Positions 1 through 21,544 of a DNA stretch of 21,544 bases are shown here, in pieces. The stretch is taken from assembly GCA_963815195.1 (NCBI GenBank), contig CAWFGE010000025.1:1-21544 (forward strand), written 5' to 3'. A model generated the notes under the pieces. It searched no databases and was not told where the DNA came from. It was given only the letters and a program-made list of their open reading frames with translations. Position numbers and translations under genes: made by a program. Source of the stretch: an uncultured Planctomycetaceae bacterium. Lineage in GTDB: Bacteria > Planctomycetota > Planctomycetia > Planctomycetales > Planctomycetaceae. How positions within the stretch are numbered: the first letter of the stretch is position 1; each line of letters starts with the position of its first letter.

Positions 1-1117
1 CGGCCCAAAGCGGTTCCTGGTAATGCTGGCCCCATTCGCGGCCGTAATGATCGAAGGCCACTTTCGGGGTGTCGCCCATCAACTCGGCGAGCGTTTCGAT
101 GGAGCATCCCACTCCCTCGTTCCAAAAACCAGCCAGCATGCGGTGAGCAAACGTGTGCCGGCAGGTGTAGCAGGAGTAATTTTTCCGCGCGGGTTCTTGA
201 TCCCAGCCGAGTTCGCGTTTGATCTTCCGAAAACGGGCGCCGCCGGTGACTTTCTTCCAGGGGCGGCCCTGCGGATTGCGAAAGACAACGGCCCCGGACT
301 CTCCCGCGGTCGGGGAAATCAAATCCCGAGTCAATTCCGCGACCTCCGATCGCACCGGAATTTTTCGCGTCTTCTTGGTCTTCGAAGAGTAAACCCGCCA
401 CATCATCCCGCGCTCGGTTTCCTCCACATCTGCGACCGTCAAACGTGCCAATTCGCAAAACGGCCGCAGGCCCGTCTGAATTGCGGCAAAGAGAAAATTG
501 GCGAATGCCTCATCCGTCGCGGAATAGAGGAGGGCCTCTTCCTCAGGATCAATGGATTGCAACCGCGGTTTTTGCGGCGGCTTTTTGAGCCCCGTCAGCG
601 GGTTCGGCACGTCGTACATATCCTGAGCATGATTGAAGGCGCCCAACACGATCGTCATTGCATTTCGCTTCGTGACCGGGGATTTCCAAGTGGAGCGGCT
701 TTCGACCCAATGCTGCACGTGCCCTTTTCGTAAGTCATTCACCGGCAGCGCCCCACAGTAGCCACAGAAATCGTTTAGATAACGCACGACCTCTTCATGG
801 TATTCCATTCGAATCATTTCCTTGGTCGCTCGCTGTTCACAATAATCGATGAAATGTGAACACACTTTCGCCACGACCCACTGGTCTTCGCTGGCCTGTT
901 CCGCGGAGGGGCGCCAGTTGCCCGCGGCTTTCACGCGAGCCAGAGCCAGTTCCGCGGCGGGCCGATTTTCCTTGCCCCGGATCGGATCCCCCGCTTCATC
1001 ATACAGCCGCACGCGGCCTTTGGTTCCCGGTGGAGTGAAATACCAGCTGTCGGTCTGTTTCCAATACCAGGCTTTCCCGCGAGATCGCCGTTGACGGCCC
1101 GTGTTGTTGTTTGTCAT
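1..1117 (-). CDS. Tyrosine recombinase/integrase, paralog B (3' end runs off the window)
   Basis: Not in the ORF track. Translated by hand from ATG 1117 (ATGA overlap with the stop of paralog A): MTNNNTGRQRRSRGKAWYWKQTDSWYFT...TGLRPFCELA...SSKTKKTRKIPVR...YSCYTCRHTFAHRML...LAELMGDTPKVAFDHYGREWGQHYQEPLWA. Open for 372 codons to the window edge. Confidence 0.9.
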   Translation of the reverse strand, partial: MTNNNTGRQRRSRGKAWYWKQTDSWYFTPPGTKGRVRLYDEAGDPIRGKENRPAAELALARVKAAGNWRPSAEQASEDQWVVAKVCSHFIDYCEQRATKEMIRMEYHEEVVRYLNDFCGYCGALPVNDLRKGHVQHWVESRSTWKSPVTKRNAMTIVLGAFNHAQDMYDVPNPLTGLKKPPQKPRLQSIDPEEEALLYSATDEAFANFLFAAIQTGLRPFCELARLTVADVEETERGMMWRVYSSKTKKTRKIPVRSEVAELTRDLISPTAGESGAVVFRNPQGRPWKKVTGGARFRKIKRELGWDQEPARKNYSCYTCRHTFAHRMLAGFWNEGVGCSIETLAELMGDTPKVAFDHYGREWGQHYQEPLWA

Positions 1118-2412
1118 GCCTTCGACTTTCTCCTTGGGGGTGAGGCGGCTCGCTTTTGCTTTTTCTGAGTCGCCGACTTCGAGGCCGAGCGGGATTTTTT
1201 ATCGTGCGGTCGGCCGGATTTCGAGCGGCTTTTCGCCGAGGTTTTTTCGTCGGCTGCATTGGACTCGGCTTTGGCGTCTCCGTCGCGGGCTTCCCCGATG
1301 GCGTTCCAGAGCGGATCCTGATAATGCTGGCCCCACTCCCTGCCGTAATGCTCAAAAGCCACCTTCGGCGTATCGCCGATGAGTTCCGCCAGGGTTTCGA
1401 TGGAGCAACCCACTCCGTCCGTCCAATACCCGGAAAGCATCCGATGAGCAAAGGTATGGCGGCAGGTGTAACAGGAATACTTCCCCTTAATGGGATCCTG
1501 GTCCCAGCCCAACTTCTTTTTGATCGCGATAAACCGCACCACGCCGGTGGTCCGCTTCCAAGGATTGCCTTGGGTGTTCCGAAGGAGGGGCAATCCCGAG
1601 CCCTTGGGGGCCGTTTCCATCAAAGTTCGCGTCAACTCGGCCACCTCCGGCCGCACGGGGATCTTCCGTGTCTTTTTGGTCTTGGACGAATAGACCCGCC
1701 ACATCATCCCCCGCGGCGTCTCTTCCACGTCATCCGCTGTCATTTTCGCCAACTCGCAAAACGGTCGCAGGCCGGTATGGATGCTGGCGAACAGGAACTC
1801 CTTAAAACGGGGTTCGGTGGCTTCATAGATCGCCTGTTCCTCTTCCGGCGTCAGGGATGCCAATCGCGGTTCCGCCTTGGGTTTCTTCAATCCTTTGATC
1901 GGATTCGGAATCCCAAACATCTCGGCAGCCCGATTGAACGCTGCCAAGACAATGGCAATCACCCCGGAGCGCGTGGCAGGGCTCCGCCAGGTCGGATGGT
2001 TATCCAACCACTTTTGAACGTGCCCCTTCTTGAGCTGAGCCACCGGAAGGGCTCCGCAGTATCCGCACAAATCGTTCAGCCAGGCGGCGGAGTTATTTCG
2101 ATGCCCCAGGCTGATCGTGCCTTTCGCCAATCCCCGCTCGCAATACTCCAGATACTCGGAACAAACGCGGGCCACGATCCATTGGCCCCCGGCATCTCCG
2201 CCTGCGGGTTCCCGTTCCCAGGTCAATTTTTCCCGAGCCAGTGCGATCTCCGCGGCTTGCCGATTTTCCTTGCCCCGGATTCGTTCCCCTTGCTCATCGA
2301 ACAGCGGCACGCGTTGTTTCGTGCCGGGTCGGGTGTAATACCAACAGTCAGTTTGTTTCCAATGCCACGCGGACCCGTGCGACTGCCTGCGTTTTTTGGA
2401 TTTTCTTCCCAT
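1114..2412 (-). CDS. Tyrosine recombinase/integrase, paralog A (432 aa from the likely start), with a basic C-terminal tail
   Basis: Motifs HTGLRP (Arg I), SSKT (Lys), YTCRHTFA (Arg II) and LIGDT...EHY (Tyr nucleophile). The ORF track starts at 2511, but ATG 2412 follows an AAGGA Shine-Dalgarno and aligns with the start of paralog B. Confidence 0.92.
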   Translation of the reverse strand: MGRKSKKRRQSHGSAWHWKQTDCWYYTRPGTKQRVPLFDEQGERIRGKENRQAAEIALAREKLTWEREPAGGDAGGQWIVARVCSEYLEYCERGLAKGTISLGHRNNSAAWLNDLCGYCGALPVAQLKKGHVQKWLDNHPTWRSPATRSGVIAIVLAAFNRAAEMFGIPNPIKGLKKPKAEPRLASLTPEEEQAIYEATEPRFKEFLFASIHTGLRPFCELAKMTADDVEETPRGMMWRVYSSKTKKTRKIPVRPEVAELTRTLMETAPKGSGLPLLRNTQGNPWKRTTGVVRFIAIKKKLGWDQDPIKGKYSCYTCRHTFAHRMLSGYWTDGVGCSIETLAELIGDTPKVAFEHYGREWGQHYQDPLWNAIGEARDGDAKAESNAADEKTSAKSRSKSGRPHDKKSRSASKSATQKKQKRAASPPRRKSKA

Positions 2413-2433
2413 CGTCCTTTCCGTCCTTTCCGT
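2413..2433. repeat. 9-bp tandem repeat (CGTCCTTTC x2 + CGT) duplicating the recombinase ribosome-binding site
   Basis: Minus strand reads ACGGAAAGG ACGGAAAGG ACG ATG. Confidence 0.7.
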
Positions 2434-2534
2434 GCTCTGCGCCGTATCGCCGCCATTGACCCGCCGCCCGGCGCGATTGATACTAAAGCGGAGTTTTCGA
2501 TATGCCAGCATCAGCCCCTTTGGGAGGCCAGCTC

Positions 2535-4157
2535 ATGTTCTTCTCGCGACGTTTTCCCTTGAATGGATTCCCTGCCCATTTACTACACAAATTTGCTACA
2601 TTCATTCTTATCCTCGGACCAGCCATTTTGTCAATAGGCACTTGCAAAAAAGGGGTATCAGCGGATAATAAGCGTGTACCTAATATTGTACTAATACTTG
2701 CGGACGATTTGGGCTACGGCGATGTGGGCTGCTTCAATCGGGATTGCCCGTTCAAAACGCCCCGCCTCGACCAGATGGCGGCGGAAGGGGCCCGGCTGAC
2801 GAACTTCTACGTCCCCACGCCTTACTGCGCTCCGTCGCGCGGCACGATTTTGACGGGGCGGTATCCGTTCCGGCATTCGGTCGTGAGAAACCCCGCCCCG
2901 GACGTGGGGGCCTCCAACTTCGGCTTGCCGCCGTCGGAGATTACGATCGCGGAACTCCTCAAGTCCGCCGGCTACGCGACGGCGGCTTACGGCAAATGGC
3001 ACCTCGGCCACAAAAAAGACTGGCTGCCCCGCACGCAGGGCTTTGACGAGTACGTCGGCATTTTGTATTCGAACGACATGTTCCCGGTGCAACTCGTGCG
3101 GAACGAGGCCGTCGTCGAATACCCCGTCGTGCAGGCGGAACTCACCCAGCGGTATACGAACCTGGCGATGCGGTTTATCCAGCAGAACAAGGACCAGCCG
3201 TTCTTTCTGTACTTGCCGCACGCGATGCCGCACAAGCCGCTCGCGGCTTCGGACAACTTCTACACCCCCGGAACCCCAGACAATTTGTACGCCGACGTGA
3301 TGTCCGAGTTGGACGACGGCATCGGGCAGGTGCTCGATCTGCTCAAGAAGTTGTCGCTCGACGAAAAGACGCTCGTGATTTTCACCTCGGACAACGGCCC
3401 GTGGTACGGCGGCTCGACGGGTGGGCTGCGGGGGATGAAAGGCCGAACCTGGGAAGGCGGCCTCAGGGTGCCGATGATTGCCCGCATGCCGGGCACGATT
3501 CCTCCGGGCGTCGTCAACGATTCCCCCGCCGGGACGATCGACATTCTGCCCACGGTGTGCAAGCTGGCGGGGGTGGACGTTCCGAGCGACCGCGTGATCG
3601 ACGGCCGCGACGTTTTGTCCATGCTCAAAGATGCCAAAGCCCCCAGCCCGCACGAGGCGATCTTCGGCATGCAGGGCCAGTCGCTGGCGACGATTCGCGC
3701 CGGCCAATGGAAGCTGCACGTCCGCAATCCCGGCCCGCCGCGGTTTATCAATCTTTCCAAGGACGAGCTCGAGAAGTGGGTCGATCCCCGCGGTCCCGAC
3801 GGCGTGATTTTGCTTGCCCCCTACGAGCAAGCCAAGCCGACCCAATACCCCGGCCTGACCACGGGCGATCCGCCGAAAGCGATGATGCTCTTCGACCTCG
3901 CCGCCGACCGGGGCGAGCAGCACGATGTCTCCGCCGAGCATCCGGACGTGGTGAAGCGCCTGCTCGCGATATTCGACAAAGTGAAAGCCGATGTGCCCGA
4001 CTTCCCCGAACCGAAGTCCGATTATCTCTTCAAGACGCCGGCGAAAGGGCCCCGGCCTTTGATGCGGTTGATCGGCGGCGAACTCCGCTACGACCGCATC
4101 CCCAAGCCGCAGGAGCACCTTCTGAAGGAACCTCTTAAGAATTCCAAGGAAGAATGA
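2535..4157 (+). CDS. Formylglycine-dependent sulfatase (arylsulfatase A-like)
   Basis: PNIVLILADDLGYGD, CAPSR (CxPxR), LTGRYP, GKWHLG and FTSDNG motifs. GGGAGG Shine-Dalgarno at 2522-2527 favours ATG 2535 over 2502. Confidence 0.95.
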   Translation: MFFSRRFPLNGFPAHLLHKFATFILILGPAILSIGTCKKGVSADNKRVPNIVLILADDLGYGDVGCFNRDCPFKTPRLDQMAAEGARLTNFYVPTPYCAPSRGTILTGRYPFRHSVVRNPAPDVGASNFGLPPSEITIAELLKSAGYATAAYGKWHLGHKKDWLPRTQGFDEYVGILYSNDMFPVQLVRNEAVVEYPVVQAELTQRYTNLAMRFIQQNKDQPFFLYLPHAMPHKPLAASDNFYTPGTPDNLYADVMSELDDGIGQVLDLLKKLSLDEKTLVIFTSDNGPWYGGSTGGLRGMKGRTWEGGLRVPMIARMPGTIPPGVVNDSPAGTIDILPTVCKLAGVDVPSDRVIDGRDVLSMLKDAKAPSPHEAIFGMQGQSLATIRAGQWKLHVRNPGPPRFINLSKDELEKWVDPRGPDGVILLAPYEQAKPTQYPGLTTGDPPKAMMLFDLAADRGEQHDVSAEHPDVVKRLLAIFDKVKADVPDFPEPKSDYLFKTPAKGPRPLMRLIGGELRYDRIPKPQEHLLKEPLKNSKEE

Positions 4158-4738
4158 TGAGCGAGCACGCCCGGACTTTCGTGGCCGTGGAGATTTCTTT
4201 GCCCGCGGAGTTGCGGACGATACTCCGGCAGTTTCGGGAGATGGGGCGGGCGGTGAAAGCCGCGGACTCGGCCGCGATGCACATCACGCTCAAATTCCTG
4301 GGCGACACACCGATGGAGGAACTCGCCAAGATCGCTAAGGCCGTGGAGTCGGCCTTGGGAAATTGCGAGGCGTTCGAGTTGGAGTCGAAGGGCATCGGGG
4401 CATTCCCGCATTGGGGCCGGCCGCAAGTCGTTTGGGCCGGCGTCGTCCCGGAGGAGCCGCTCGTCCAGATCGCCGACGCTTTGGAAAACACCCTCGAACC
4501 CTTGGGCTTTCCGAAAGAACGGCGGGCGTATCATCCGCATCTCACCTTGGCCCGCATCAAAGCCAAGCCGCCGGCCGAGCTCAAACAAATTGCAGACGCT
4601 CACGAAACACAATCTTTCGGCACGCAAATCATCGACACGGCAATCTACTACCAATCCGAACTCGAACCCACGGGGGCCGTTTACACGCCGCTCTCCACGA
4701 TCCGATTCGAGGGCGGCGCGGATGCGGATAAAAGCTGA
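4154..4738 (+). CDS. thpR: RNA 2',3'-cyclic phosphodiesterase (2H phosphoesterase, LigT/ThpR)
   Basis: RTFVAV N-terminus, two HxT motifs (MHITLKFLG, PHLTLAR) and C-terminal SEL.P.GAVY. ATGA overlap with the sulfatase stop. Confidence 0.92.
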   Translation: MMSEHARTFVAVEISLPAELRTILRQFREMGRAVKAADSAAMHITLKFLGDTPMEELAKIAKAVESALGNCEAFELESKGIGAFPHWGRPQVVWAGVVPEEPLVQIADALENTLEPLGFPKERRAYHPHLTLARIKAKPPAELKQIADAHETQSFGTQIIDTAIYYQSELEPTGAVYTPLSTIRFEGGADADKS

Positions 4739-20722: not shown

Positions 20723-21544
20723 ATGTCAACCCAAAATCGAACGAAAACGCCATTGGGCCTATTCCAAGGCCGCCCGACACCGCGTCTTTACGATGCGGCG
20801 GTCAACGTCTTGCGCGTGCATCACTACAGCCTGCGGACGGAACGAGCTTACCTTGATTGGATTCGCCGATTCATTGTTTTTCACGGCTCTCGGCATCCCC
20901 GCGAATTGTCCGAAGGCGACGTCAACCGCTTCTTGACGCATCTGGCAGTCAAAGAACATGTCGCCGCATCCACCCAGAATCAGGCGCTGGCGGCGATTCT
21001 TTTTCTGTACGAAAAAGTCCTCAAACAACCGCTGGACCGCATTGAAGGCGTCGTTCGCGCCAAACGCCCCAAGCGGTTGCCCGTGGTCTTGACCCAGAAC
21101 GAGATCCGCCGCATTCTCGCCGAAATGAGTGGTGTGCCAAAAACGATCGCCCTGATGTTATACGGCTCAGGACTTCGGCTCCTGGAAAGCCTTCGGCTCA
21201 GGGTCAAAGACGTGGATTTCGAACGGGCGGAATTGACGATCCGCGAAGGGAAGGGGGATAAGGATCGGCGGACGATGCTGCCTGAATCCGTCGCGGAATC
21301 TCTGCGTACGCAAATCGCGAAGGTCCGTATCCAGCACCAGCGCGACTTGGAACGGGGCTTCGGAACCGTCGAATTGCCTTACGCCTTGGAACGAAAACTC
21401 CCAGGCACGGCACGGGAATTTGGCTGGCAATACGTCTTTCCCGCGACGACGATCTCAAAAGACCCTCGCAGCGGAGTTCGGCGACGTCATCACCTCCATG
21501 AATCGGTGATCTCGCGGGCAATTTCCGCTGCGCTTCGGCGAACT
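20723..21544 (+). CDS. intI: Integron integrase (3' end runs off the window)
   Basis: Not in the ORF track. Hand translation is open for 274 codons: HYSLRTERAYLDWIRRF, FLTHLAV...VAASTQNQALAAILFLY, LPVVLT, YGSGLRLLE, GKGDKDR, the IntI-specific insertion VELPYALERKLP...GWQYVFP, and DPRSG.RRRHHLHES. Confidence 0.96.
   Translation, partial: MSTQNRTKTPLGLFQGRPTPRLYDAAVNVLRVHHYSLRTERAYLDWIRRFIVFHGSRHPRELSEGDVNRFLTHLAVKEHVAASTQNQALAAILFLYEKVLKQPLDRIEGVVRAKRPKRLPVVLTQNEIRRILAEMSGVPKTIALMLYGSGLRLLESLRLRVKDVDFERAELTIREGKGDKDRRTMLPESVAESLRTQIAKVRIQHQRDLERGFGTVELPYALERKLPGTAREFGWQYVFPATTISKDPRSGVRRRHHLHESVISRAISAALRRT

Follow-up and report, generated by a model that had tools for sequence, protein, structure and literature searches.

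Organization of the locus

The window, by which we mean the whole stretch of DNA that was analysed (21,544 nt), is the entire contig C25 of the genome of an uncultured Planctomycetaceae bacterium, and it begins within the gene of integrase B. Two tandem tyrosine recombinase genes stand head-to-head with a sulfatase gene, which is followed by a phosphoesterase gene. In the reading that we favor, the features are as follows.

2–1117 (−): integrase B, the second tyrosine recombinase (PF00589, E 5e-12); its 3' end lies off the contig
1114–2412 (−): integrase A, adjoining the island end (PF00589, E 1e-7); the stop of A overlaps the start of B
2456–2484 (+): predicted outward promoter of the rebuilt sulfatase, TTGACC-17 nt-GATACT, matching the consensus
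2523–2537 (+): predicted ribosome-binding site GGAGG and start ATG at 2535; the GAGG and ATG columns are conserved
2535–2700 (+): island-borne sulfatase 5' end; 48 leader codons that include a hydrophobic core are followed by those of PNIVLIL and by one base of the Ala codon, its first
2580–2601 (+): direct-repeat pair TTACTACAC, TTGCTACAT in the leader codons, predicted integrase arm sites
2694–2699 (+): island-side core arm ATACTT, whose inverse AAGTAT opens the island far end
2701–2707 (+): CGGACGA, putative overlap for strand exchange within the Ala-Asp-Asp codons, marking the boundary of the island
2701–4157 (+): host sulfatase body (PF00884, E 1e-62), in frame with the leader; 540 aa from ATG 2535
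4154–4738 (+): LigT/ThpR-like 2H phosphoesterase (PF02834, E 4e-22), overlapping the sulfatase stop

The initial annotation had reported G+C counts of 45/120 at 2581–2700 and 78/120 at 2701–2820 with a switch at the ADDLG codons, and an exact recount returned the same figures. The 120-nt interval lowest in G+C in the whole 21.5 kb lies near 2577 (minimum 44), and counts of 45 or fewer occur in 0.03% of such intervals. The third-position bias reverses at 2699–2700. Among the 44 sulfatase starts of this genome that have a C/S-x-P-x-R motif downstream, three island-led copies have the lowest 120-nt counts (45, 45, and 47; median 65, n = 44), and a relic copy on contig C13 is next-lowest (53). The GTAC-N8-GTAC element at 2676–2691 and the CTAATA repeat at 2680 and 2691, both noted earlier, are present in the sequence. 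The PNIVLIL codons had also been called rare elsewhere in the window; by counts from six window genes this holds for five of the seven (GTA 7/244, CTA 6/380, ATA 3/170, CCT 11/224, CTT 33/380) and not for AAT (27/97) and ATT (52/170). From such features it had been proposed that an element integrated into the conserved sulfatase motif and restored the gene with a replacement 5' end, and the comparative checks reported here supported this proposal.

Orthologs of the window sulfatase are found in the related genomes G001 (83%) and G008 (69%). The LigT/ThpR-like gene, which would be co-transcribed with the sulfatase, is linked to it in G001 and was matched without that sulfatase in G002 and G003. 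At the other end of the window (20723–21544, +), a second integrase with a Phage_int_SAM_4 domain is cut by the contig end; we take it to be integron-integrase-like.

Island copies and displaced 5' fragments within the genome

Contigs C8 and C2 each carry, at one end, a copy of window positions 6–2700 with 99.4–99.6% identity. Identity among the three copies stops at 2700, with the first differences at 2701–2702, and each copy then continues in frame into a different sulfatase; an abrupt limit of identity at about 2700 had been anticipated. Integrase A is 100% identical in the three copies, and the sulfatase bodies are 30–42% identical (the C8 value comes from 96 residues only). A fourth copy, on C13, covers 2383–2716 at 84% and leads a fourth sulfatase without an integrase. 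This relic leader (C13:661088-661414, L080) lies about 300 bp from a tRNA-Gln gene.

It seems to us extremely improbable that the three copies are an artefact of assembly or binning, that is, a collapsed repeat or mixed strains. All three are indeed cut off by contig ends, with breakpoints no more than 17 bp apart, and the C8 sulfatase is frameshifted near codon 80–87, but each copy carries private substitutions, three far ends match the three near ends in number, and dozens of other genomes show this arrangement, among them G031 with two island copies on one contig.

Since the window is a whole contig, the far end was sought on other contigs. The genome holds about 77 sulfatase-like loci, and 58 sulfatase-type starts were returned by a motif scan in six frames. 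On C7, C13, and C14, one such start each loses sense right after Asp-Asp and enters one common sequence. They are displaced sulfatase 5' fragments of the kind that had been predicted, each ending at the Asp-Asp codons and each on another contig, and a junction scan of the genome found no further sulfatase-type case of the common far-end junction. As for pairing, the C7 and C13 fragments both fit the core of the window's copy. The C14 fragment and the C8 body both read Val-Asp-Asp, likewise the G001 and G003 orthologs, which is only a hint of pairing. Synteny in G001–G003 gave no decision on which fragment belongs to which body, and an ortholog of the C2 body was found in none of 5 genomes.

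Two side observations concern these contigs. About 200–250 bp inside the C7, C13, and C14 far ends lies a piece like the 3' half of a tRNA (L076:6537-6580), present also near 63,000 on C14. We take it to be Asn-like; ARAGORN and Rfam gave no call on it, and a nested element that targets tRNA genes may have its border here. C1, C3, and C18 start, at contig ends, with several kilobases of degenerate tandem repeats (unit about 70 bp), which are possibly CRISPR arrays.

Distribution in Planctomycetota and conservation of the leader

A species-genome scan, from which the best 80 of 143 relatives were kept, gave 75 integrase loci, all from Planctomycetota except one short contig. In this set from the best 80 of 143 relatives, a sulfatase match is found in 63 of the 75 loci, and a PN...DD motif stands head-to-head with the integrase at a distance of at most 600 bp in 67 of the 75. 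Within the 67, the motif of L055 and L072 runs into a far end with no sulfatase body. Six of the eight motif-less loci have at most 300 bp of upstream sequence; as for the others, the integrase of L029 is truncated at its 5' end and lies inside an island, and in L034 a putative transposase interrupts the locus 42 bp upstream. When 400 other genomes were sampled evenly across the phylum, 6 contained the integrase, and all 6 have a sulfatase bearing the same type of leader. The expectation that homologous recombinase pairs repeatedly sit head-to-head with different sulfatases was borne out by both sets. Some of the loci come from the same genomes and genera, and therefore these counts overstate independence.

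The targets are diverse. The 48 sulfatase bodies fall into 28 groups at 50% identity, with a median identity of 31%. Integrases that are 92–100% identical repeatedly stand on bodies that are about 30% identical, and some pairs have orthologous bodies. G+C before the junction is lower than after it in 63 of 64 loci.

The leader is conserved as a coding unit. The 45 codons before PN are free of stops in frame in 65 of the 67 loci, compared with 9 and 3 in the other frames, and the two in-frame misses are a slicing artefact at a contig end (L018) and a tandem junction (L055). Both promoter boxes (pattern TTGAC-17-GATACT) are conserved in the alignment of homologous island ends, and 45 of the 67 loci have a ribosome-binding site with an in-frame start. 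The hydrophobic peak of the leaders has a median of 2.3, compared with 2.56 for native leaders, and the leader is predicted to be an export signal. Leaders of the single-integrase branch (L054, L071, L073, L074, L151–L155) have a twin-arginine-like RR(S/T)F motif, which may be a Tat signal.

Complete islands, empty site and cargo

Both ends were found on one contig in five genomes, giving islands of 73.6 kb (G031), 82.7 kb (G034), 90.0 kb (G032), 72.7 kb (G035), and 46.1 kb (G259). The G035 island is followed by a tandem copy. With the patterns used here, the far end was not found in G033, G017, and G351.

An empty site, which had been expected in a relative, was found in G046, a relative of G034. 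There the flank (80%) runs without interruption into the native leader (70%) and the body (89%), parts that stand 82.7 kb apart in G034. The native leader of G046 matches the displaced fragment of G034 with an E value of 2e-10.

Cargo varies between islands. Pfam searches of island ORFs gave respiratory, metabolic, stress, and IS genes as well as serine recombinases. In the G034 island (C2, 1.055–1.138 Mb; L127–L131), we observed a cbb3-type oxidase, multiheme cytochromes, and cytochrome c maturation genes, together with complex I-like subunits and glyoxylate-shunt genes, and the G032 island (C4, L134) contains an F-type ATP synthase gene set. Three islands and the partial C7 end yielded 184 called ORFs, and in the 105 that were searched there were no conjugation, virion, or transfer genes; this set leaves out shorter ORFs and two very long ones and comes from a crude ORF caller that misses genes. 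A test for ICE or prophage character gave no match in plasmids or viral contigs. An excised circle was not shown: a scan of metagenomes for the junction of joined ends gave 7 matches, of which 2 are chance and 0/7 have an integrase match in the available sequence, and public-run contigs at both island ends had low depth and no informative joint. No RNA data set was listed among the public runs containing the sequence. Junctions joining both ends can also be tandem copies or re-hit relics.

Structure of the proposed recombination site

The repeat pair at 2580–2601 starts 121 bp before the overlap and belongs to the most conserved leader columns. A matching arm repeat occurs at +120 to +122 in 8 of the 8 far ends examined and in 3 more. 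At the core, the near end finishes ATACTT-G, and far ends start T-AAGTAT in 7 of 8 cases and AAGTAG in 1. The A at 2696 is found in 45 of 65 island-led starts (about 20 are without it) and in 0 of 41 native starts, and the T at 2699 in 50 of 65 and 3 of 41, respectively. Island-specific third positions end at 2699.

The 7-mer at 2701–2707 is identical at both ends in 4 of the 5 complete islands and has one mismatch in G031. Positions 2700 and 2708 differ between the ends in some islands, including a 2700 mismatch in G032. Since 2701–2707 is common to the ends and island-specific bases stop at 2699, we infer an overlap of about 7 bp (7–9). A direct repeat spanning about 2690–2723, which the initial annotation had expected, did not appear; island ends have in common only about 7–9 bp (2700/2701–2707/2708).

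Judged from its nucleotides, the junction fits a tyrosine-integrase site: an inverted repeat of 6 bp encloses an overlap of about 7 bp, and paired repeats resembling arm sites stand at a distance of 121 bp on both sides. As a sequence pattern, the combination of predicted arm repeats, an inverted-repeat core, and a short overlap at both ends corresponds to that of lambda and Tn916. The exact arm-repeat pattern was also tried for counting relics; it matched this genome only among 401 and was dropped as too strict.

Probable relic leaders and re-used sites

It had been stated that the same AT-rich leader on orthologous sulfatases in genomes lacking the recombinases would speak against integration. 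On the one hand, the G001 ortholog meets this description to the letter, as it carries the leader at 84% with a body at 83%, and integrases A and B had no match in G001. On the other hand, the G001 leader and the C13 copy begin with the first codons of integrase A, and the G008 ortholog has an ordinary leader. Accordingly, we read the leaders of G001 and C13 as relics. As an alternative under the same mechanism, an island may have been present at the window's sulfatase since before the species split with G001.

Of 10 relic leaders, 7 retain the promoter pattern. The idea that relics arise at one defined deletion point was rejected, as their ends vary. In G031, G032, G030, and the metagenome contigs L164–L166, what has been displaced is an island-type leader, with no intact integrase in the available sequence, which indicates that used sites are hit again.

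The same data bear on a reading in which the leader is native or long domesticated, the integrases merely adjoin it, and spread occurred by homologous recombination or gene conversion in the motif. The similar divergence of leader and body in G001, where no integrase is present, would suit this reading, and so would the host-like codons before the junction in some island-led starts. However, the G001 leader starts with a stub of an integrase gene, the G008 leader is ordinary, and an empty site exists. In addition, the displaced fragments stop at one and the same position, where an inverted repeat and a fixed arm spacing are found, and the ends have just 7–9 bp in common, which is too little for ordinary homologous recombination. 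We regard a native or long-domesticated leader as highly unlikely.

Integrases A and B

Integrases A and B are 62% identical. Their PF00589 catalytic-domain scores (32.2 and 46.3 bits) exceed the curated cut-off of 27.1, as for tyrosine recombinases, and an NCBIfam search gave no family above its cut-off. Homologs number 1109 proteins at E <= 1e-10 and are named in cultured species, among them Thalassoroseus pseudoceratinae, Lignipirellula cremea, and Gimesia panareensis.

The catalytic columns of integrase A, assigned via alignment to a PDB integrase, are R216, K244, Y315, R318, D347, and Y356. The set is R-K-Y-R-D-Y in place of the usual R-K-H-R-H-Y and differs from the canonical R-K-H-R-H/W-Y. 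Across 42 integrase sequences, R, K, R, and Y are invariant, and the first His is replaced by an invariant Tyr. At the position of the second His, 90% or more of 53 A and 32 B sequences have Asp, but this residue is absent from the conserved lists of the 42-sequence set. Since two catalytic positions deviate from the usual His, we regard the integrase activity as putative.

For the N-terminal 75 aa of integrase A, a language model gave PF09003 (0.97) and PF02920 (0.95), the arm-binding domains of lambda and Tn916, as look-alikes, and Pfam had no match in this region. By this model, the family appears to have an arm-binding N-terminal domain, which we take as a lead only.

In the tree, A and B fall in largely separate clades, with 31 of the 32 B-position sequences grouped together at a support of 0.92. 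Only one integrase is present in several loci that branch deeply, and therefore two enzymes are not required family-wide. By tblastn, each locus has one or two family members, and no locus shows three members of this family in a row, as the recombinases of GInt and RIT elements stand. In L028 the order is swapped, and a B-type gene adjoins the sulfatase. A minus-strand TTGACA at 2629–2634 was considered as the integrase promoter, and a promoter scan gave no support for it.

These properties also concern the manner of movement. With the same target and the same 5' replacement, the island could move by copy-out, as proposed for SE and GInt elements, in which case the donor site stays occupied. 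In agreement with this, a single genome has several nearly identical copies, there is more than one recombinase, and transfer genes were not seen in 105 of 184 ORFs; the overlap mismatch in G031, the 2700 mismatch in G032, and the fact that no circle was seen would also fit. Nevertheless, the arm-type repeats and the arm-binding-like domain point to the lambda/Tn916 type, the overlap is identical at both ends in 4 of 5 islands, and the SE and GInt gene sets are absent beside the site in the window. Copy-out, as opposed to lambda-like excision, is given about one chance in five by us.

Comparison with known elements

Integrases landing in protein genes usually use one conserved gene. We compared the island with known elements on the basis of parts of their published descriptions.

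The dusA islands are described as inserting in the 5' part of a protein gene and supplying a new 5' end with a predicted promoter, with a replaced first beta strand and the old 5' end at the outer border (PMC4482086, Farrugia et al. 2015). The present island is similar in that an integrase island supplies the 5' end and the displaced native end lies at the far border; the displaced 5' end, the in-frame replacement, and an empty site in a relative were all found here. In contrast to the dusA islands, with dusA and some dusB as targets, the target here is a family of sulfatase paralogs (28 groups at 50% among 48 bodies), and the island has a predicted export leader, mostly two integrases, and two non-canonical catalytic residues.

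GInts are described as islands whose size can reach or exceed 70 kb, whose several tyrosine recombinases stand in tandem at one end, whose cargo varies, and which are transcribed outward; they need ginABCD (three integrases and GinD) and show an RHRHY motif (PMC5385486, Bardaji et al. 2017). Large size, recombinases at one end, variable cargo, and, as predicted here, outward transcription are common to both, whereas the present loci have one or two paralogs (62% identical here) and a gene rebuilt from the island. GInts are set apart here by their description, not by Gin-protein sequence.

SE, RIT elements, and Tn554, with two or three tyrosine recombinases, are likewise mobile elements with multiple recombinases of this kind (PMC10214605, PMC8138268). 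Unlike the island here, SEs are reported to have four core genes, terminal inverted repeats of 13–19 bp, and a size of about 7 kb, and RIT and TnpA recombinases to be without an arm-binding domain (PMC10214605, PMC8138268), which the island integrase family appears to have. An integrase clade of HE-PICI repeatedly targets one class of protein genes, and the general rule is given there as a 7-bp crossover plus a replacement sequence in attP (PMC10111431). The island resembles this clade in its repeated targeting of one protein-gene class, but here a single integrase sequence occurs with several unrelated paralogs and restores them.

A sulfatase-targeting element was not found in the open literature at the level of abstracts, and supplements and the TIGER database could list such islands. 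The main text of PMC12884075 mentions neither sulfatase nor Planctomycetes. Accordingly, 5' replacement is already known from dusA islands, and for the targeting of a whole paralog family no description was found in the open literature as far as abstracts cover it. The end of a gene-restoring island is thus real and well supported here, and what distinguishes it is a paralog family as the target, a predicted export leader that overlaps the site of recombination, a pair of non-canonical integrases, and sites that are used more than once.

Conclusions

In this study, we determined the position of the junction, the many targets, the displaced fragments, islands of 46–90 kb, one empty site, and the conservation of the leader frame. 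On this evidence, we are confident that the AT-rich stretch is the integrase-side end of a mobile island in the Ala-Asp-Asp codons of a sulfatase, likely inserted by the integrases through site-specific recombination, which replaced the gene start with a predicted promoter, ribosome-binding site, and export leader.

In the mechanism that we propose, the site of the free island would have the overlap of about 7 bp at its center, enclosed by the 6-bp inverted repeat; the paired arm repeats, at a distance of 121 bp to either side, would be bound by the N-terminal domain of the integrases. The partner of this site in recombination would be the stretch of codons for the conserved PNxxxxx-x-DD motif. 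As the function of the protein holds these codons similar in dozens of paralogs, a genome would provide many sites. The native 5' end would be moved to the far border, and the island leader would restore a full-length, probably exportable enzyme, so that insertion would cost little. When the island decays, promoter and leader would persist, and the half-site could be hit again.

A further-reaching view is tentative, and we lean somewhat against it: the island may be a leader-swapping machine, in which a two-subunit non-canonical integrase reads the motif via degenerate codons and installs a promoter and export signal on any paralog, relics serve as preferred landing pads, and the expression and export of sulfatases are repeatedly rewired.

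The motif of a large paralog family would give an island many near-harmless sites per chromosome, and a single stretch of 170 bp appears to serve both as the coding leader and as the site of recombination. The island is also a candidate tool for insertions of 50–90 kb in a phylum with few genetic tools. Sulfatases are a hallmark of planctomycete carbon cycling, and the insertion of such islands would be a new route for these enzymes to gain promoters and export signals.
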